In this document: one piece after another, positions 8,331-17,273 of the stretch | Position numbering within the stretch: position 1 is the first letter of the stretch | How the letters are laid out: every line of letters begins with the position of its first letter | From: an uncultured bacterium | Lineage (GTDB): Bacteria > Margulisbacteria > WOR-1 > CAVSGV01 | NCBI GenBank assembly: GCA_963699255.1 | Contig: OY969425.1 | Span: 300,001 to 332,000 of the forward strand | Direction: 5' to 3' | Length of the DNA stretch: 32,000 nucleotides | The notes under the pieces: model-generated | What the model was told of the DNA's origin: nothing | The model's input: only the letters and a program-made list of their open reading frames with translations | Database searches by the model: none | Translations under genes and position numbers: made by a program

Positions 8331-8356
8331 ATAATTCCCTCCTTATTTCCGGATAT

Positions 8357-8566
8357 TCAGACAATGATCTTGGAAGCCTTCTGTTTATCAATAATTTCTA
8401 AAAGGCCCGCGTCAGGTTTATTTGATCCGTCACCAGGGACCTGGCTCCACTCCGCGCCCTCTTTCTTTGTGTCGAGGTTCCGGTTCTCTTGTCCAGCAAT
8501 ATCTTTTTGAGCGAGCCTAAAAGACCAGGTTCCAAGCTTGTTTCCGACCCTATTAATAATGGTCAT
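8357..8566 (-). CDS. hypothetical 69-aa protein upstream of rubrerythrin
   Basis: The ORF has RBS GGGGGTGAG 5-6 nt before its ATG and ends 26 nt before the rbr start on the same strand. I recognise no motif. Confidence 0.45.
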   Translation of the reverse strand: MTIINRVGNKLGTWSFRLAQKDIAGQENRNLDTKKEGAEWSQVPGDGSNKPDAGLLEIIDKQKASKIIV

Positions 8567-8778
8567 CTAACTCACCCCCGAATCATTCCGGTCATTATTT
8601 TATAGTAATTCCAAAAAAAAGCAAACTCACCGAAACTTACTCTTCCTAAAAGATATAAGCCCGTCAGAAAGTCGACTTTTCTAATGACATTCTAAGCTTT
8701 CTTTAATGGCGTTTTAATCCGGCCGTGATAACATTCTGCGCGGGAAGATCAAATATAAGAACCGAGGAGGTGATACAA

Positions 8779-9036
8779 GTGAAAAAGAGTTTTACAGCAT
8801 TATTCATGTTGCTATTGGTCCTAGGCTGTTTCTCGGCAAATGTCGTTTTTGCAGATCAGGTAGCGGTGAGTCAGGAAGCTCAAAAGGTAAAACAGGACAG
8901 AAAGCAGTTAAAACAGGATAAGAAAGCCCTCAAAGCAGCCAAAAAGGCGGCCAGAAAGGCAAAACGTGCGGCAAGGAAGCAGCAAAAGCAGGGAACAAGC
9001 GAGGCCACACCGGCTCCGGTCCAAACAAATCAGTGA
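8779..9036 (+). CDS. small exported (possibly lipo-) protein with a lysine/arginine-rich helical tail
   Basis: GTG 8779 sits 8 nt after GAGGAGG (8764-8770). Signal peptide KKSFTALFMLLLVLGCFSANVVFA contains a VLGC lipobox-like site. The mature part is K/R/Q/A-rich (KQLKQDKKALKAAKKAARKAKRAARKQQKQ). A terminator follows. Confidence 0.6.
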   Translation: MKKSFTALFMLLLVLGCFSANVVFADQVAVSQEAQKVKQDRKQLKQDKKALKAAKKAARKAKRAARKQQKQGTSEATPAPVQTNQ

Positions 9037-9055
9037 TCACTGAAACATAAATATA

Positions 9056-9090
9056 AAGCCGAGGGGACTTAAACCCTTCGGCTTTTGTTT
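9056..9090 (+). terminator. rho-independent terminator
   Basis: AAGCCGAGGGG-ACTTAAA-CCCTTCGGCTT stem-loop with one bulged T, followed by TTTGTTT. It lies directly after the stop at 9036. Confidence 0.6.
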
Positions 9091-9127
9091 GTAAAACCCC
9101 AATAGGAACGGATGGTGGGTTAGTCTG

Positions 9128-9137
9128 CGTATCAAGG
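9128..9137. repeat. left copy of the 10-bp direct repeat CGTATCAAGG
   Basis: Read directly from the sequence. Identical to 14545-14554. The flanking bases differ on both sides. Confidence 0.6.
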
Positions 9138-9151
9138 ATCCGAAATAATTT

Positions 9152-9197
9152 AATTTCCAATTCACAATTTACAATTTGACATTTATTATTGGAAATT
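9152..9197. repeat. 10-bp perfect inverted repeat enclosing three tandem heptamers (candidate origin or recombination site)
   Basis: AATTTCCAAT (9152-9161) and ATTGGAAATT (9188-9197) are exact reverse complements. The 26-bp spacer contains ACAATTT (9164-9170), ACAATTT (9171-9177) and GACATTT (9178-9184). Confidence 0.6.
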
Positions 9198-9326
9198 GGT
9201 CATTACCCGAAGGGTTGGCTCCCCCTAGTAGACATGTTCAGGAACCGACTTATTAAGGTTGAGCTTAGCCTTCAATACATTAAATCTATTTATTCTTGTC
9301 TTAGAATTGAACCCGTAATTGTTTAA

Positions 9327-9659
9327 CTAATGTGGTTTTGGCGAACTGAGAAAATCAAACAGAAATTTAAGAGCAACTCCAAGAACTACAAGAAAAATGG
9401 CCCAAAGAGCATCCCCCCATTGTTTGAGTCTAGAAAAGACCGCATTTCTATCAACTTCTTGGATTAGTTTTTTTATTTCATTTTTTATATTTTCATCCTT
9501 TTTTACCATAGAACAAAAGAGATCGCAAAATAATTTATCTAGTTTTTTTGAATCCTTTGACGCTTCTTCCAATGCAAGAGCAATTTGTTCTGGTTTTAAT
9601 CTATTTTCAAGTACCGTTACGCGGTCTTTTATGCTTGGTTTATCAACATTACCTGCCAT
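9327..9659 (-). CDS. hypothetical 110-aa protein: charged helical N-terminal part plus a single C-terminal TM helix
   Basis: The ORF starts 1 nt after the stop of the upstream 160-aa ORF. Its C-terminal segment WGDALWAIFLVVLGVALKFLFDFL is hydrophobic and the rest is K/E-rich. No family recognised. Confidence 0.6.
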   Translation of the reverse strand: MAGNVDKPSIKDRVTVLENRLKPEQIALALEEASKDSKKLDKLFCDLFCSMVKKDENIKNEIKKLIQEVDRNAVFSRLKQWGDALWAIFLVVLGVALKFLFDFLSSPKPH

Positions 9660-9660
9660 A

Positions 9661-10143
9661 TTATTGTCCTTTTAATTTACCTATCGCATTGTCGACTGCT
9701 AGAAAAAAATCATCAATCTTCTTATTTCCCGCACTATATCCTAAACTAAATTCGTCTTCAGGAAATTCAATTGATATTTCGGCTCTTTTTTCTCCGTTTT
9801 CCACATTAAGAGATCTTTTAACGCCCCCAATTATATCTCTTAAATAAGTGGAATCAGATTTAATGTCTTGACCAGTATCAGCAATGGTAACTTTAATCAA
9901 TTTTGCCTTTGTTAGGATATACACAAGAATTCCTTCTGCCCCTTGCGATAAGGTAGCGGGAATAACAAGACATTCTGTCACAGTATCCCCATTAACTATC
10001 TTTGTAATAAATTCAGGGAAGGTGGTTTTATCAAGCCGACTAAGTAGGGTGTCATCATCATAACTATATACTTTATCCAATATGATTTGAATTTTATCTG
10101 CGCCTTCGGCTAATGGTTGAACTTTGCTTACATTGTCGTCCAT
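9661..10143 (-). CDS. hypothetical 160-aa soluble protein (beta-rich core plus C-terminal helix, possibly PH-like)
   Basis: Clean ORF and first gene of a two-gene minus-strand operon. It has alternating beta-like segments (TECLVIPATL, GILVYILTKAKLIKVTIA, RAEISIEFPEDEFSLGY) and a terminal helix KKIDDFFLAVDNAIGKLK. The fold assignment is only an inference. Confidence 0.6.
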   Translation of the reverse strand: MDDNVSKVQPLAEGADKIQIILDKVYSYDDDTLLSRLDKTTFPEFITKIVNGDTVTECLVIPATLSQGAEGILVYILTKAKLIKVTIADTGQDIKSDSTYLRDIIGGVKRSLNVENGEKRAEISIEFPEDEFSLGYSAGNKKIDDFFLAVDNAIGKLKGQ

Positions 10144-10152
10144 ATATGTTTT

Positions 10153-10182
10153 ATATTACCTTTTTATAATATTGATGTCAAT
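10153..10182 (-). promoter_or_regulatory. candidate promoter with overlapping palindrome for the 10143-9327 operon
   Basis: On the minus strand: TTGACA (10181-10176), a 17-nt spacer, then TAATAT (10158-10153). The ATG at 10143 lies only 9 nt downstream of the -10. The palindrome ATTGA-TG-TCAAT (10171-10182) overlaps the -35. Confidence 0.45.
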
Positions 10183-10369
10183 ACTGCCTAGCCCTCATTT
10201 GTTGTGCCACTTAGACTTATTCTGTCCCTAATATACCTAAAATTATGTAGATCAGCGTTACCGCAATGGATAGCTCCATTTATACTCATTATAATGAATC
10301 GGACTAAACGGTATTTCAAGAATGCTTTGATCAATGATATAATAATAATTGATTTGAAGAAGTAATGAT

Positions 10370-11230
10370 ATGACAACACAAAAAAACCAGCAGTTGCGCG
10401 ATAAACTCGACAGCGTTGACAGCAGGGCAAACCAACCACGGCCAACTCAAGGACAAGCTAAGATGCTTCGCTATATAGAAGACCTTATCCGAAATAAACA
10501 ATTTAAGCGACTGATTAAAAGGTTAAGAAACCTGAGCAAACTTCGCACTATGCCTAAAGGTAACTATTATGACTGGACTCTTGAAGAACAAAAAAAACAT
10601 GATGGGATAAACAATGAGCTTCATTCAATCGCTCAAGGATATGAGGCTTTGCGTAAAAGATGCAAAAAGGTCTTGAGGAAAAAAGATTCTGTTGTGAGAG
10701 AAAAAATTGCGTCTGATTACGGGTTAGATAATGATTTAATAAACCACGCCTTGGCCTTACTTGGAAAGAATGAGGAAACCATAAAATGGTCAAAAAAGGA
10801 AATTGATCCTGATATGTGCAAATTGATTGATTTGTATGAAGAAGAAATGAGCCCTCTCAATAAAGGGGAAGAGATTATATATCTAAACCTTGTCCGACAG
10901 CTCCTAATTACAGCATATCCCGTTGCTATCGCCATTCACCCAAGAGCCTCAAAAAGAGATGTTTTAGATTATATTGAGAAGCGATGGAAATGGATTGACG
11001 CAAAACAATGGATGTTTAACCAAAAAGGTGCACTTAAAATCAAGAAAAGAAAGCATAGCCAAGAAATGATCGATTTTATATGGGCAAATCGTTCTTTGCC
11101 AGCAAAGCAAATTGAGAAAAAGCTCAATAAAAAGTTTCCAAATAATGAGCTTGTCTACTACGAAATAAGCAAGATAATCCAAATTGAAAAGCAAAGACGC
11201 TTCAAAGACTTAACTGCTACCGAAAAATAA
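10370..11230 (+). CDS. hypothetical 286-aa protein (basic, possible C-terminal helix-turn-helix)
   Basis: Long uninterrupted ORF in an AT-rich region where random ORFs are short. The C-terminal segment SQEMIDFIWANRSLPAKQIEKKLNKKFPNNELVYYEISKII looks HTH-like. No family recognised. Confidence 0.65.
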   Translation: MTTQKNQQLRDKLDSVDSRANQPRPTQGQAKMLRYIEDLIRNKQFKRLIKRLRNLSKLRTMPKGNYYDWTLEEQKKHDGINNELHSIAQGYEALRKRCKKVLRKKDSVVREKIASDYGLDNDLINHALALLGKNEETIKWSKKEIDPDMCKLIDLYEEEMSPLNKGEEIIYLNLVRQLLITAYPVAIAIHPRASKRDVLDYIEKRWKWIDAKQWMFNQKGALKIKKRKHSQEMIDFIWANRSLPAKQIEKKLNKKFPNNELVYYEISKIIQIEKQRRFKDLTATEK

Positions 11231-11306
11231 CGTGGGTCGGTAACTTCTTATCTAATTATTCTGCAAGCAGGTAACCTTATGGCATAACCATTAAAGGTTG
11301 CTTGTT

Positions 11307-11576
11307 ATGCAAGACACAAATAAAGATCAACAAAACAAGAATCTTCAAATAAAGGATTGCTCCTCCGAAGCCCGACGGAATCTTGTCGGCTTCTTTGGGT
11401 TGCCTATTACAGACGATAAACAAACGACACATGACATGGACATCAGTAATTTATCTTTTAGTGATGAAGAGATTAAAAGGATTGCTGATGTCCTCGCTAT
11501 TTTAATTAAAGTCGACCAAAGAATAAAGGGAACAAAAAGGGAGGTGAACATAAATGAAGGAAATATTAAAGCTTGA
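11307..11576 (+). CDS. hypothetical 89-aa protein
   Basis: ATG 11307 lies about 10 nt after AAAGG. The ORF track begins at TTG 11298. Same strand and tightly packed with downstream genes. No motif recognised. Confidence 0.4.
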   Translation: MQDTNKDQQNKNLQIKDCSSEARRNLVGFFGLPITDDKQTTHDMDISNLSFSDEEIKRIADVLAILIKVDQRIKGTKREVNINEGNIKA

Positions 11577-11688
11577 AAAAGCATTGCGTGAAATTTTTGC
11601 AAAGAATTATAAAGAAGAGTTATCTAGACGGGTTAAGAAAGGACTTGAAGAAGCAAAAAAGCGAAAAAATGAAACCAATAATAAGTGA
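11554..11688 (+). CDS. 44-aa basic helical ORF (below the ORF-track cutoff)
   Basis: ATG 11554 is preceded by a strong RBS GGGAGGTG (11539-11546, 7-nt spacing). Translation by hand: MKEILKLEKALREIFAKNYKEELSRRVKKGLEEAKKRKNETNNK, stop TGA 11686-11688. It overlaps both neighbours. Residues IFAKNYKEELSRRVKKGLEEAKKRK resemble the alpha-E helix of serine recombinases (FAEFERELISERTKAGLAAAKARGK pattern). Confidence 0.4.
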   Translation: MKEILKLEKALREIFAKNYKEELSRRVKKGLEEAKKRKNETNNK

Positions 11689-11965
11689 GATACAAATAAC
11701 GCCGATCAAGGCAAAAGACGGGCTGATTGCTATTGCCAGCTTTGTCTATAACGAGGATTTTTATATGGGGTCAATCGGGATATACACAAGGCCGCAGGCC
11801 GGATACCGATTGACCTACCCCACCCGTAAGACCGCTAACGGTAGTTTCAATCTTTTCCATCCGATTAACAAAACCATTGCGGATGAAATTGAGAAAGCAG
11901 TAATCAGCAAATTTGAAGAGGTAATGAATCTGTATGATAGACACAATAGTATTAACACTGAGTAA
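11669..11965 (+). CDS. SpoVG-fold nucleic-acid-binding protein homologue
   Basis: MKPIISEIQITPIKAKDGLIAIASFVYNEDFYMGSIGIYTRPQAGYRLTYPTRKTANGSFNLFHPINKTIADEIEKAVISKF aligns by eye with B. subtilis SpoVG ([34 protein letters not shown]...[34 protein letters not shown]). ATG 11669 fits the family N-terminus. The track ORF starts earlier at TTG 11573. Confidence 0.75.
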   Translation: MKPIISEIQITPIKAKDGLIAIASFVYNEDFYMGSIGIYTRPQAGYRLTYPTRKTANGSFNLFHPINKTIADEIEKAVISKFEEVMNLYDRHNSINTE

Positions 11966-13103
11966 AGATATGTTTTATATAACCGAACCGGATAAATTTA
12001 CGCCATCGGCTCGCTGGCTTGATGCTAACACAAGCCTATCGGGAAGCCGTGCCTATATCACTTCCAAGCAAAACCCGATAAAAACCGAATTGCTTGACGG
12101 CCTTTATAAGCCCCGCCTTACTTTAACCAACCGTTTTAACCATACTGGAAGCTTTGAAGCTTCATTAAAAATCGAGCTATCCTTACCCAAACTTCTATAT
12201 GGAAATAACTTTGATGAATTGAAAGATTCCGATTTTGAATCGGTCTCAAACAAATTACAGGAACGGCTACAAGAAATGGGCGTTCATGTTTTTAAGCATT
12301 TACTTATCAAAGCCCTTGTTTCAGCGGTGCATTATTCAAAAAACATACCGCTTACCGACGGGACAACACCTTATCACTTCATAAAGAAAATTCGAGAAGC
12401 CAATATCACTCAAGCCCTCGATGCTAACCAAACCGATTTCCGCAATGATGGCCATAGTTTTAAGTGGCATTGCAATTCTTATGAAGTCGCATTTTATGAC
12501 AAGATCAAAGACCTTGAATTTTCAAAGAAAAGCACAAAACGGGCAATAGAAAAAGATAATATTATGCAACTGGGGCTTTTTGATGCTTTGCAAAAAAGAA
12601 AACCCTTTGAGGTCTTGAGGATGGAAGTAAGGCTAAATAAACGGCAAAAAATAAGCCAGGTTTTCAAAAGGCTTGGGATTGACAGCGAGGTAACCTTTCA
12701 AAGTGTTTTTGATTCCAAAAAATCTCAATTAGTCTTATCGTATTATCTTGTCGAAGTCGAGAAGCAAAGGTCAGCCCTATTGGATCGGACATATAACGAT
12801 CCCCAAACATTATTAGCTGATATTGTCATAAGCAATCCAAAACTGAAAGCAAGACAGGCATTACAGGTGTTTGGATTAAAGCAGGCGTTTGATAAAATCG
12901 GGATGCGGGAGCTAAGGAAGATACTTAACAGATTAAGCGATCGATCTTGGTATCGTTTAGTTAATACTATCAAGCAAGTGAAGCTTGCGAAAAAGAATGA
13001 CACTTTCGGGGTTATCCGCAAACATCTATTATCTTTTGAACCCCTAAAGTTAGCTAATTTTCAAAATGCCATCGAAGATAGAAAGGGCTTGAACAGCGTA
13101 TGA
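11934..13103 (+). CDS. rolling-circle replication initiator-like protein (Rep_trans / phage gene II-CRI superfamily)
   Basis: 389 aa. The N-terminus MIDTIVLTLSKDMF resembles f1 gpII MIDMLVLRLPF. The central pair of motifs SYEVAFYDKIKDLE ... FEVLRMEVRLNKRQKI matches the pT181 RepC pattern RIYNKKQE ... WRVEIELKR and the gpII pattern LVRFEARIKTRYLK. RBS GAGGT lies 9 nt upstream. The gene overlaps the SpoVG-like gene by 32 nt. Confidence 0.6.
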   Translation: MIDTIVLTLSKDMFYITEPDKFTPSARWLDANTSLSGSRAYITSKQNPIKTELLDGLYKPRLTLTNRFNHTGSFEASLKIELSLPKLLYGNNFDELKDSDFESVSNKLQERLQEMGVHVFKHLLIKALVSAVHYSKNIPLTDGTTPYHFIKKIREANITQALDANQTDFRNDGHSFKWHCNSYEVAFYDKIKDLEFSKKSTKRAIEKDNIMQLGLFDALQKRKPFEVLRMEVRLNKRQKISQVFKRLGIDSEVTFQSVFDSKKSQLVLSYYLVEVEKQRSALLDRTYNDPQTLLADIVISNPKLKARQALQVFGLKQAFDKIGMRELRKILNRLSDRSWYRLVNTIKQVKLAKKNDTFGVIRKHLLSFEPLKLANFQNAIEDRKGLNSV

Positions 13104-13510
13104 ACAGCGAGAAAAGGCATAATGCCACAGACACAGGGCAAACGAGGCTCACAGGGGCTATTATCACGCATTATAGGCCCTTATGGCGGATTACTGATGA
13201 TGCCTATGACAGGTATTATCAATCCTTCAGGGATAAGATAGCCGAAATTGATGCGAGGTTAGCACTACTTCAAGATGCCGAAGATAATTACTATATCACT
13301 GTAAAATACTTGCTAGATGTGGCTAAACGGGCAAACGATCTATTTGTCCGTTCGGAAGTTGAGGAAAAACGACAGATCATCAAGCTTATACTTCCGAACC
13401 TTAGGATGGATGGCAATACTTTGCGATATGAAGCACAAAAACCGTTTGATTTTCTACTCGCTTATGCGGATAGTAAAGGAAAGCTCCCCCGAGAGGACTC
13501 GAACCTCTAA
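13100..13510 (+). pseudogene. large serine recombinase, C-terminal fragment only (coiled-coil / C-terminal region); no catalytic domain
   Basis: ITDDAYDRYYQSFRDKIAEIDARLALLQDAEDNYYITVKYLLDVAKRANDLFVRSEVEEKRQIIKLILPNLRMDGNTLRYEAQKPFDFLL matches the recalled C-terminal consensus of large serine recombinases (..AN..Y...G..LLELA..A..LF......EKRRLLNFVLSN......L....R.PFDLL). The ATG overlaps the Rep stop (ATGA at 13100). The last 27 nt run into the tRNA 3' end. Confidence 0.55.
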
Positions 13511-13793
13511 CCAATCGGTTACAAGAACCTCAAAATTACTTTTGAGCTTGGACTATCTCATCACCCTTATTAACGGTCTAAAGGGGTCGGGCGCTGATGA
13601 GGTTTATTGGTTGGGATCCTCACCCTCTAGTCTCTGCACGTTACCGCCTACTTTAAACCCTTCGGCGATCTTCGCTCAGGATTATCCTTAGACAACCTAA
13701 GGACTTCCCTGAATTCACCCGATTTTTCAACCCCGGTTACCCGGGGAAGCTGCCACTTGACAGCCGATTGCTCTACCATTGAGCTACAGGGGA
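13484..13793 (-). tRNA. tRNA-Asn (anticodon GUU) interrupted by a 238-nt group I intron; exons 13793-13760 and 13521-13484
   Basis: The spliced sequence is UCCCCUG UA GCUC AAUGGUA GAGC A AUCGG CUGU|UAA CCGAU UGGUU AGAGG UUCGAGU CCUCU CGGGGGA G (72 nt). It forms a full cloverleaf with a 7-bp acceptor stem (one G.U), U1-A72, discriminator G73 and anticodon loop CUGUUAA, as in E. coli tRNA-Asn. CCA is not encoded. Confidence 0.85.
13522..13759 (-). ncRNA. group I (self-splicing type) intron in the tRNA anticodon loop
   Basis: - P1: the 5' exon ends in U, and exon GCUGU pairs with intron GCAGC (13753-13749), giving a U.G pair at the splice site.
- P2: CCCCGG-GUAA-CCGGGG (13746-13731).
- P-like element GAAUUCAGGGAAG and Q-like element AAUCCUGAGC, forming P4 CAGGG/UCCUG.
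- P5: UCCUUAG-GUUGU-CUAAGGA.
- R-like element GUGCAGAGACUAGA (13639-13626) and S-like element GAGAUAGUCC (13559-13550), forming P7 GACUA/UAGUC.
- P9: CUCAAAA-GUAA-UUUUGAG (13546-13529).
- The last intron nucleotide is G (13522). Confidence 0.85.
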
Positions 13794-13811
13794 GCGCCAA
13801 TGGATATGGTC

Positions 13812-13839
13812 ATTCTATCAAGAAATGATTATTTGTCTA
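13812..13839 (-). promoter_or_regulatory. candidate promoter for the tRNA gene
   Basis: On the minus strand: TAGACA (13839-13834), a 16-nt spacer, then TAGAAT (13817-13812). This lies 18 nt upstream of tRNA position 1. Confidence 0.3.
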
Positions 13840-14142
13840 CTTTGAGATAAAGCCCGCATGTAATTCACGGTGACAGTTTGCGCACAACAATTTACACTTA
13901 TTAAGTTCATTTTTTACTTTTTCCTAACTACGAGTGTAACCTTTTGCTGATATCCCGAAATCCTTCTTCGTGTCATCAAGATGATGGAATTCCAATGCAT
14001 CAGGGCATTTAGAATATCCGCAGTTCTCGCAAAAGCCACCTTTTAACTCAATTGCTTTTACCCGCAAATTCCTTCTTTTCTTTTTGACCGCTTCTATCAG
14101 ATACTTGCGTCTGTCCTTATATGTTCTTGTATCTTTATTCAT
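13837..14142 (-). pseudogene. small HNH endonuclease with an in-frame TAG (13924-13926) at a conserved Trp position
   Basis: The track ORF ends ...FGISAKGYTRS*. Reading through the TAG in the same frame gives EKVKNELNKCKLLCANCHRELHAGFISK*. This restores the CxxC ... HH ... CxxCH architecture of about-100-aa HNH proteins, whose consensus as I recall it has RSWE at this point. TGG to TAG is a single transition. Confidence 0.8.
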
Positions 14143-14236
14143 ATAATGAAGTATATCAAATTAGCTCAAAGCTTTATAGGGTTCAGATAAACAGGTTGCG
14201 AAACTTGTCCAGCCGGGGAGGAATTTTTTTGTTTCT

Positions 14237-14515
14237 TTAGGTTATGCTCTTGGTCGGATCGTTGAAAATGAGGAATCTTTTCATCGCTTCCTCTTTGGGG
14301 TCGCTCAATATATTCGTGCTTTGAGCCATCATCGCCGTATCGAGAAGGTTCTTCGCCTTCTTTGTTTCACCTGATTTTGTCAATTGATCATTTTCGGCGA
14401 TTATTTCGCTGCTTTTGGTGTCCATCTTATTCTGCACAATCCTGTTTTTTCTCAGGCTGTCACTTACAGCATTATTAAGATTCTGAGCAAGCTTGTTTAT
14501 GTCTTGTATATCCAT
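14237..14515 (-). CDS. hypothetical 92-aa protein
   Basis: ATG at 14515 (MDIQDINKLAQNL...) lies about 8 nt after GGGGGT. The track ORF starts 8 codons earlier. Hydrophilic and Q/N/K-rich, with no motif recognised. Confidence 0.45.
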   Translation of the reverse strand: MDIQDINKLAQNLNNAVSDSLRKNRIVQNKMDTKSSEIIAENDQLTKSGETKKAKNLLDTAMMAQSTNILSDPKEEAMKRFLIFNDPTKSIT

Positions 14516-14544
14516 TTGATTATACCCCCATCCATACATATATT

Positions 14545-14554
14545 CGTATCAAGG
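14545..14554. repeat. right copy of the 10-bp direct repeat CGTATCAAGG
   Basis: Read directly from the sequence. Identical to 9128-9137. Confidence 0.6.
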
Positions 14555-14587
14555 CAAGGAATTCTTGCATCTATTTTCCAACTTTCA

Positions 14588-14607
14588 GGATGCTTCTTGA
14601 AGAATCC
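14588..14607. promoter_or_regulatory. 20-bp near-perfect palindrome upstream of the amino-acid permease (candidate operator)
   Basis: GGATGCTTC-TT-GAAGAATCC: 9-bp arms with one mismatch, 64 nt upstream of the 14671 start. Confidence 0.3.
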
Positions 14608-16808: not shown

Positions 16809-17273
16809 ATGAGATCTAGAACTGCTTTTATTATGATAGTTTGTTTCGCTATCGCATGCACAGCTGCGAGCGGCGAGGTCCGCCTGTATCGTCAGTTCAA
16901 GGATGTCTCGATCAAAGAGAACGGCAGGGTCGTTCAGTCCGTCGACGCAAAGAACCTATTTGAATGTACTTATGATCTGGACCTGCAGCACAACACCATC
17001 ACCCGTACGAAAATAAGGCGCCTTGATGACCCCGTCGGGCGCAAAGATGATGACGTTTACATAATAAAAGCAAAACAGCGCCTGCTGCCGAGCGAAGCGG
17101 GCAACGGCGGAAATGTGTATGTTGCCGTCGAAAAGGACGGGCACGAGATACTGGAGCTGGGCCATCGTTATGCTTTTACCACGCGGACCAGCCCGTTCTC
17201 ACAGGTGATCTCCGGGGTTTATAAGAGAGTGTACGATAAAGACCATGTCAGGCAGTGGCCCAGGAAAAAATAG
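16809..17273 (+). CDS. secreted hypothetical protein
   Basis: N-terminal signal peptide MRSRTAFIMIVCFAIACTAASGEV. RBS GAGGGGA upstream. No family recognised. Confidence 0.6.
   Translation: MRSRTAFIMIVCFAIACTAASGEVRLYRQFKDVSIKENGRVVQSVDAKNLFECTYDLDLQHNTITRTKIRRLDDPVGRKDDDVYIIKAKQRLLPSEAGNGGNVYVAVEKDGHEILELGHRYAFTTRTSPFSQVISGVYKRVYDKDHVRQWPRKK

Follow-up and report, generated by a model that had tools for sequence, protein, structure and literature searches.

The window analysed here is a 32,000-nt stretch (positions 300,001 to 332,000) of contig OY969425.1 from an uncultured bacterium of the WOR-1 lineage. Between a lysine-rich protein gene and a permease gene, it contains an AT-rich region with a 389-aa hallmark gene, a SpoVG-like gene, a recombinase remnant, several further open reading frames (ORFs), an intron-bearing tRNA-Asn(GUU) gene and an HNH endonuclease pseudogene (Table 1). 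In the GC profile of the window, the GC content falls from ~0.50 outside to 0.31-0.42 between ~9100 and ~14650, and the tetranucleotide distance to the flanks is 0.47-0.63 inside this dip versus 0.34 +/- 0.03 outside (outside maximum 0.44). The compositional island (~9000-14600, in both GC and k-mers) is real, as a preliminary description of this DNA had stated, and so is the perfect 10-bp direct repeat CGTATCAAGG reported at its borders, which occurs exactly twice in the window (expected window-wide, 0.04), each time within ~100 bp of a compositional transition. That description took everything between the repeats for one small replicon, whose insertion had produced the 10-mer as an att or target-site duplication. 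On comparison with related elements and element-free loci, however, the region is very probably a composite of a decayed tRNA-Asn element (9218-13490), native AT-rich host DNA and a 10-mer matched by chance. The interval 9218-13490 appears to be a ~4.3-kb broken integrative element, inserted at the 3′ end of tRNA-Asn(GUU) by a large serine recombinase (LSR). A replicon-like element is thus present as claimed, but it ends at 9218 and 13490 and not at 9128 and 14554.

Table 1. Features of the AT-rich region and its borders (positions in the 32-kb window)
Feature	Position	Strand	Remarks
Left 10-mer CGTATCAAGG	9128..9137	+	AT-rich intergenic DNA, between lysine-rich gene terminator and attL; outside the element
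Presumed native tRNA-Asn trailer	9138..9217	-	GC 0.31; relocated beyond the element when it integrated
attL core GCTCCCCC	9218..9225	+	Displaced copy of the final 8 nt of tRNA-Asn, antisense
Detached recombinase tail LPLVDMFRNRLIKVELSLQYIKSIYSCLRIEPVIV	9219..9326	+	In frame with recombinase ORF only in the excised circle; stop at 9324-9326
Element ORF, 110 aa	9327..9659	-	C-terminal hydrophobic helix; no family; variable among elements
Element ORF, 160 aa	9661..10143	-	No family; variable among elements
Element ORF, 286 aa	10370..11230	+	No family; position holds unrelated ~495-524-aa proteins in relatives
Small element ORF, 92 aa	11298..11576	+	C-terminal half conserved, 70-71% identity to L084 and L086
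SpoVG-like gene, 98 aa	11669..11965	+	Always directly upstream of, and overlapping, the 389-aa gene
389-aa hallmark gene	11934..13103	+	Candidate rolling-circle replication initiator; inovirus-G2P-like predicted fold
136-aa fusion ORF	13100..13510	+	Spans ~5.3-kb deletion, junction ~13185
attR core GCTCCCCC	13483..13490	+	3′ end of functional tRNA-Asn gene
tRNA-Asn(GUU), attB target	13483..13793	-	Exon 1 13760-13793, intron 13522-13759, exon 2 13483-13521
HNH endonuclease pseudogene, 101 codons	13837..14142	-	In-frame TAG 13924-13926; host gene
Small host gene, 100 aa	14237..14539	-	No family; L176 homologue 42% aa identity, same orientation relative to permease
Right 10-mer CGTATCAAGG	14545..14554	+	Host DNA collinear with L176 13504-13814

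The ends of the element were placed by comparison with related loci, designated here by L numbers. Homology to the related elements L084 and L086 begins and ends exactly at the two copies of an 8-bp core (GCTCCCCC) that corresponds to the final 8 nt of tRNA-Asn, and the left-end block conserved among related elements starts at window position 9218/9219. The attL junction reads flank-GCTCCCCC-TAGTAGACATGTTCAGGAAC and the attR junction GATAGTAAAGGAAA-GCTCCCCC-GAGAGGACTCGAACC, where GAGAGGACTCGAACC is the tRNA in antisense. A left end with a longer, degenerate piece of the tRNA was considered and rejected, as only the 8-bp core is in common. The trailer to the left of attL begins with CAACCCTTCGGG and that of the element-free locus L176 with CATCCTTCGCTCC; inside the window trailer lies the inverted repeat AATTTCCAAT/ATTGGAAATT (9152-9161 / 9188-9197), which had earlier been read as an inverted repeat plus iterons.

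Two pairs of occupied and empty loci (window/L176 and L083/L177) confirm the ends at 9218 and 13490. L176, a 116-kb contig reached through the genomic context of an HNH homologue, is the closest element-free host relative, with amino acid identities to the window of 96% for Orn/Arg decarboxylase, 90% for saccharopine dehydrogenase, 93% for rubrerythrin and 95% for the permease. There, the HNH gene and an intron-bearing tRNA-Asn with exons identical to those of the window are followed by unrelated DNA right after GGGGGAGC. In the second pair, the trailer of L177 matches the attL flank of L083 from the core exactly (81% over 445 bp); L177 and L178 carry the same module of HNH gene and intron-bearing tRNA and represent the unoccupied attB for the L083/84 lineage. 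The more distant relative L005 has an unoccupied, intronless tRNA-Asn between orthologues of the genes that flank the element in the window. Scans of genomes and metagenomes with the permease pointed to an Omnitrophota-like lineage; they gave best matches of 76-83% identity without conserved synteny, and yielded no close relative or empty site.

The ~1.07 kb at the right (13483-14554) appears to be native AT-rich host DNA rather than element cargo, because its genes are conserved and syntenic in element-free relatives. The block of HNH gene and tRNA is 84% identical at the nucleotide level to L176 9043-9727, and the same split tRNA-Asn gene is found in L176, L177 and L178, all without the element. 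Import of the tRNA together with the island was therefore rejected, since L176 has identical exons and the HNH gene in the same neighbourhood. Most items listed in the preliminary description were identified correctly, but three of them (the intron-bearing tRNA, the HNH gene and the 100-aa gene) belong to the host. These findings also bear on the reading that the whole of 9128-14554 is one small replicon inserted at CGTATCAAGG with all its contents as cargo. The 10-mer is unique to two positions close to the compositional transitions, and 13794-14554 is itself atypical (GC 0.38, tetranucleotide distance ~0.48-0.50), as such a replicon would lead one to expect. However, the HNH gene is equally AT-rich in L176 without any element (GC 0.40, contig 0.485), related elements stop at the tRNA core and not past it, and neither terminal inverted repeats adjoining the 10-mers at 9128 and 14545 nor a transposase in the window (Pfam and PHROG scans) were found. 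We regard the single replicon as highly improbable.

The right copy of the 10-mer is decisive in this respect. Window 14256-14570 is collinear with L176 13504-13814, so that the right repeat lies inside unbroken homology, where window CCCCATCCATACATATATTCGTATCAAGGCAAGGAATTCTTGCAT aligns to L176 CCCCATACATATTATTCGTATCGAGAAGCAGAATTCTTGCAT. The orthologue of the 10-mer in this element-free relative is CGTATCGAGA, an 8/10 match located ~4 kb from the L176 tRNA-Asn and far from any lysine-rich-gene terminator. When the repeat copies were tested as homology breaks flanking a single-copy empty site, they failed, as the right copy sits in continuous homology to L176. Because this copy lies in contiguous host DNA of a relative without the element, CGTATCAAGG is not an att site or target-site duplication, and the repeat seems to be a chance match rather than an insertion junction. 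The chance that two zones 5.4 kb apart have a 10-mer in common grows with their width, from 1.4-1.8% (+/-50 bp) through 4-6% (+/-100 bp) and 8-13% (+/-150 bp) to 18-29% (+/-250 bp). The earlier estimate of ~1% is thus about right for fixed zones of +/-50 bp but too low for wider ones; the GC transition can be placed to ~100-150 bp at best, and for such realistic zones the chance is 4-13%. Outside the ten bases, no similarity between the surroundings of the two copies was found.

The 10-mer might instead be a by-product of the rearrangements that separate the window from L176 (inversion of the HNH-tRNA block, gene loss), for example as microhomology at a breakpoint, and not a boundary of the element. 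Homology to L176 does end at ~14570, 16 bp to the right of the repeat, to resume at 14583 but 1.5 kb further along in L176, and the left copy lies in a stretch without an L176 counterpart. Yet the 8/10 version is already present in the unbroken homology of L176, which places the right copy before the rearrangement; an inversion is not expected to give direct repeats, and chance alone is sufficient. This origin is improbable, if somewhat less so than insertion at the repeat. An exact short repeat found where the GC content changes can thus be misleading despite a genuine mobile element between its copies; here, only the comparison with related elements and empty sites revealed the true ends.

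Returning to the tRNA-Asn element, we aligned the window copy with L084. Window 11664-13185 corresponds to L084 9731-11252 (88%) and window 13185-13505 to L084 16567-16887 (92.5%). Because the alignment switches at 13185, ~5.3 kb have been lost from the window copy, comprising, relative to L084, an HTH gene, a methyltransferase gene, a helicase-type restriction subunit gene and ~380 N-terminal recombinase codons including the catalytic domain. The 136-aa ORF is a fusion across this junction. Its residues 1-31 derive from a small ORF located after the 389-aa gene, its residues 30-135 represent the last ~106 aa of the LSR, and its final 7 codons and stop are read from the antisense tRNA-Asn. Tested for the Resolvase, Recombinase and zinc-ribbon domains, the window copy failed, as it retains only the C-terminal ~106 aa (13185-13490); full-length recombinase genes are found in the relatives L084, L086, L087 and L171-175. 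The earlier observations of a recombinase remnant and of no intact integrase were therefore correct. The window copy appears to be a remnant of an LSR element and not a functional member, with no capacity for autonomous movement. It had also been suggested that the element could be moved in trans, and mobilisation by a related recombinase is possible because both att regions are intact. Excision would give attP GGAAAGCTCCCCCTAGTAGAC and attB GGGGGAGCCAACCCTTCGGG, with a predicted empty attB junction of ...TCCTCTCGGGGGAGCCAACCCTTCGGGTAATG and a predicted attP junction of ...GATAGTAAAGGAAAGCTCCCCCTAGTAGACATG.

Related elements indicate what the recombinase looked like before the deletion, and their attP lies inside the recombinase ORF, ~35 codons from its end. 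When the right end of an element is joined to its left end via the core, the recombinase ORF is extended in frame by ~33 codons. The joined ORFs of L084 and L086 are 518 aa long with near-identical tails, and the tail of the distant L087 reads LPLVDAFKNREIEFGFSLQNIQTVF.... Synonymous differences exceed non-synonymous ones in every pair of tails (e.g., pS 0.52 vs pN 0.17), with a pN/pS of ~0.3-0.45 among four elements. A search with the 518-aa reconstruction returned 1,937 homologues, most of them 485-500 aa long (92-94% query cover) and a few 513-526 aa long (98-99% cover). The 516-aa recombinase P0216 is encoded on three contigs of independent assembly (ENA, Logan and JGI; L173-175), which are 100% identical circular permutations of one 12,648-bp circle with terminal overlaps of 141 bp and 30 bp. 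On this circle there is no tRNA, and the recombinase runs uninterrupted through ...SPLVDAFRNGKVEFTISLSHIQSTF.... The circle carries a DUF3987/Toprim primase-helicase and two large ankyrin-repeat genes, not the SpoVG/389-aa module; because its replication module is a different one, the clade serves several unrelated element backbones.

The C-terminal ends were then counted in 115 recombinase homologues with a KPF[D/N/E] anchor. As many as 93 end as expected for integration at tRNA-Asn, 47 by reading into the antisense T-arm (LPxxDSN...) and 46 by stopping no more than four residues from the core. Of the remainder, 21 have different tails, in many cases with a D-x-x-R-[N/T] motif, and 1 has the canonical tail. 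Tandem arrays of two different serine-recombinase elements at a single tRNA-Asn occur in L086 (1896-10311) and L172 (1904-11879). In the L086 array, the upstream recombinase reads through a hybrid att site into the tail block of the downstream element; in the L172 array, the tail of the upstream recombinase is a divergent one.

The comparisons show that the element integrates site-specifically via the 8-bp core at the 3′ end of tRNA-Asn, that the tRNA is preserved, that the recombinase exchanges its C-terminus in the process, that the clade has a free circular form and that the window copy decayed through the ~5.3-kb internal deletion. In our reading, the LSR recombines attP with attB within the core, and a copy of the core together with the native tRNA trailer comes to lie on the far side of the element. 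The excised circle encodes a full-length recombinase of ~516-518 aa with the conserved tail, and the integrated form one of ~486-495 aa whose final residues are read from the antisense tRNA. After excision, the circle would probably replicate by a rolling-circle mechanism through the G2P-like 389-aa protein, possibly with the SpoVG-like DNA-binding protein. It is conceivable, though we advance it with considerable reserve, that these recombinases (from Patescibacteria, Omnitrophota-like bacteria and, by source names, Dependentiae) are the first recognised LSR clade that targets tRNA genes and that attP within the ORF acts as an integration-state switch. The tail, made only by the excised circle, might then tune the activity or directionality of the recombinase, similar to the C-terminal swap of Mx8 IntP. 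Such a tail exchange would be a simple and testable form of integration-state sensing.

Parallels exist among known integrases. Upon integration of Mx8, int gains a new 3′ end and the properties of the enzyme change, its C-terminus being altered and not destroyed (PMC6070905); the Mx8 and SSV1 integrases are both cited as ones that 'extend across attP' (PMC4383910). Like Mx8 intP/attP and SSV1, the present system has attP in the integrase ORF, a tRNA target and a new 3′ end on integration. Mx8 and SSV1, however, use tyrosine recombinases, and the SSV1 gene is split near its middle, whereas here an LSR exchanges only a tail of ~33 aa. For site-specific serine-recombinase elements, a review of integrative mobilizable elements describes insertion into protein-coding genes, frequently with disruption, or into intergenic sites (PMC5704250). 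The elements studied here resemble LSR elements (phiC31, Bxb1 and SPbeta; Tn4451-type elements and streptococcal integrative mobilizable elements) in their Resolvase, Recombinase and Zn_ribbon domains, short core and site specificity, but differ from those described in targeting the 3′ end of tRNA-Asn without disruption and in having attP in their own ORF. The recombinase contradicts the published generalisation that serine integrases avoid tRNA genes. Islander-type tRNA islands share the intact tRNA at one end, the displaced fragment at the other, the integrase gene beside the tRNA and the tandem arrays; in the present elements, however, the displaced fragment is only 8 bp long and the integrase belongs to the serine and not the tyrosine family. 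Tyrosine-integrase islands typically have a longer displaced tRNA fragment. The family combines three known designs, those of an LSR-type element, of a tRNA island and of an integrase ORF that contains attP. With its attB at the conserved end of tRNA-Asn, such a serine integrase could allow landing-pad-free integration in bacteria that are hard to engineer.

The 389-aa protein marks a large family, with at least 1,880 homologues at ~60% identity; among the 120 homologues listed, none has a precomputed Pfam domain, and where the source names an organism it is mostly one of the Patescibacteria, in which few mobile elements have been described and genetic tools are lacking. The same architecture surrounds members at 85%, 75%, 61% and ~60% identity in four independent relatives (L083-85, L086, L087-90 and L171): leftward genes and a ~500-aa protein, both variable, then a small ORF, the SpoVG-like gene, the 389-aa gene with HTH_17/HTH_3 genes adjoining it, cargo and the recombinase. 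As cargo there are restriction-modification genes (type III or type I), found in L083-85 and L087-90, or a gene for an HNH protein. The recombinases of these relatives have ~486-520 aa and the Resolvase, Recombinase and Zn_ribbon domains. In L083/84, L086 and L087-90, the 3′ end of the recombinase gene overlaps a tRNA-Asn(GTT) on the opposite strand, like the 136-aa ORF of the window, and the recombinase gene of L171 runs into a tRNA-like 3′ end not called by ARAGORN. L171 was considered as a carrier of another intron-bearing tRNA and rejected, as an Rfam search found none. The tRNA-Asn element family is widespread, and a published description was not found: a literature search on serine recombinases at tRNA-Asn and on serine-recombinase elements of Patescibacteria returned none, although its coverage was incomplete and this is absence of evidence only.

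As for the other genes of the window copy, the SpoVG-like assignment was borne out by Pfam PF04026 (35.2 bits vs a gathering score of 29.6; 1.4e-8) and by NCBIfam (2.4e-9). The 286-aa ORF shares only its promoter/start region (10333-10384) with relatives. No match to the 110-aa and 160-aa ORFs was found by tblastn in L083-L090, and scans with Pfam, PHROG, NCBIfam and PADLOC gave nothing credible for any of the orphan ORFs, in agreement with their being described as lacking a recognisable family.

The 389-aa protein had been called a Rep_trans-like initiator. Pfam offers no support for this: Rep_trans (PF02486) matched neither the window protein at E <= 0.1 nor 39 family members at E <= 10. The predicted fold is nevertheless close in kind. 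An AF2 model (pLDDT 80, pTM 0.82) was compared with BFVD using Foldseek and matched predicted structures of viral proteins (E 2e-7 to 7e-6, probability 1.0, TM 0.41-0.51), one of them annotated as the Inoviridae 'Replication-associated protein G2P' (E 7e-6, probability 1.0, TM 0.47-0.50); four other viral proteins matched with E values between 2e-7 and 4.5e-5. Five tyrosines are invariant across the family (Y58, Y134, Y183, Y188 and Y340). In its predicted fold and its invariant tyrosines, the protein resembles the class of inovirus gene II protein (G2P) and Rep_trans, but unlike these it has no sequence-profile match to Pfam, NCBIfam, PHROG or PDB. We consider it a candidate rolling-circle replication initiator.

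An element with the same ends might not be a self-replicating rolling-circle replicon at all, but a filamentous-phage-like virus, a satellite or a defence island moved by a helper. The fold matches are only to viral proteins, including G2P, the protein matches no plasmid Rep family, related elements carry restriction-modification cargo, and a small ORF with a membrane helix lies at the left end. A comparison of the island with plasmid and virus databases had been proposed as a check, and blastn found nothing in plasmids. On the other hand, blastn against phage collections gave weak matches at the HNH gene only, no morphogenesis or coat genes could be recognised with Pfam and PHROG, and a scan of IMG/VR returned no viral contigs with the 389-aa protein. 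We judge a viral, satellite or helper-dependent nature unlikely, though clearly more credible than either alternative origin of the 10-mer.

Several points weigh against the interpretation as a tRNA-Asn element with a rolling-circle module. At least two copies of the 8-bp core occur in 27% of window shuffles, so that the core alone is not unusual; its meaning derives from the comparative evidence, not from its frequency in the window. An empty site could not be found in the strain of the window itself; its only other assembly (Logan ERR10755942) also bears the element. The tRNA block is inverted between the window and L176, which makes the two loci rearranged relatives instead of plain versions with and without the element, and 8347-9217, including the left 10-mer, lacks an L176 counterpart in which the history of that copy could be checked. 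The circular form belongs to the same recombinase clade but carries another replication module; for elements of the SpoVG/389-aa type, a circle was not recovered. The 389-aa protein has no match in Pfam, PHROG, NCBIfam, PADLOC or PDB, and its assignment as a Rep comes from one structure-library search of predicted viral models at a TM of ~0.5.

The target tRNA-Asn gene contains a group I intron of 238 nt between anticodon nucleotides 35 and 36, which confirms the intron-bearing tRNA of the preliminary description. Rfam Intron_gpI (RF00028) matches 13529-13769 (-) with 84.7 bits against a gathering score of 50, and two homologues score 93 (L176) and 70.5 bits. In-silico splicing at the P1 U-G pair and the terminal G yields a canonical 73-nt tRNA-Asn(gtt) according to ARAGORN, whereas five other splice choices yield aberrant tRNAs. 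The 13 compensatory pairs among three intron homologues are no more than supportive of possible self-splicing. Known bacterial tRNA group I introns reside in tRNA-Leu(UAA) and tRNA-fMet of cyanobacteria and in tRNA-Ile and tRNA-Arg of proteobacteria. The present intron is like them in its length of ~240 nt, its position in the anticodon loop, the P1 U-G pair and the terminal G, but it interrupts tRNA-Asn(GUU), in an Omnitrophota-like lineage, and the accompanying HNH gene is free-standing upstream of the tRNA and not within the intron. In a literature search of incomplete coverage, no report of a group I intron in a bacterial tRNA-Asn was found, which is absence of evidence only.

The HNH endonuclease of the preliminary description holds as to family (PHROG models, 3.7e-14). 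Its gene is not one for a 72-aa protein but has 101 codons with an in-frame TAG at codon 73, beyond which the same frame encodes the remaining half of the HNH motif (CKLLCANCHRELH). At the position of this TAG, TGG (Trp) is found in homologues at 72-88% identity. Recoding of TAG was rejected, as a nonsense mutation is the simpler explanation for a single occurrence with TGG in close homologues. The 101-aa HNH gene lies directly upstream of the intron-bearing tRNA-Asn at all four loci with this tRNA (window 13483-14142 (-), L176 9061-9720, L177 2339-2993 and L178 925-1579) and is absent at the intronless tRNA-Asn loci L005 and L083/84. Alleles with and without the intron are distinguished, too, by their sequences in the anticodon stem and the T-arm. 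The arrangement suggests a cassette of a free-standing homing endonuclease and an intron with co-conversion of the exons. It would add a new host tRNA, and possibly a free-standing homing arrangement, to the few bacterial tRNA group I introns.

A few further observations concern the surroundings. The lysine-rich 103-aa protein (8725-9036) resembles a signal peptide at its N-terminus and weakly matches Rz-like spanins in PHROG (E 4e-4); its gene and the adjacent 69-aa ORF have no counterpart in L176, and 8347-9217 may be a lineage-specific acquisition. The ERR10755942 assembly (L001/L002) is identical to the window across the island, differs by one residue in the permease (99.8% identity) and shows an apparent frameshift or indel in the 154-aa gene to the right of the permease (16809-17273). 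In both lineages (window/L176 and L083/L177), the tRNA-Asn block of the occupied locus is inverted relative to saccharopine dehydrogenase as compared with the unoccupied relative, which could be a coincidence or reflect recombinase activity tied to the inversion. In L176, the tRNA-Asn 3′ end TCTCGGGGGAGC (9709-9720) recurs 348 bp downstream at 10057-10068, around a GIY-YIG ORF (9774-10013); this arrangement may represent the remains of an att site or a further small selfish insertion into this hotspot. Next to tRNA-Asn, GIY-YIG ORFs are likewise found in L083, in L178 and, in two copies, in L005.

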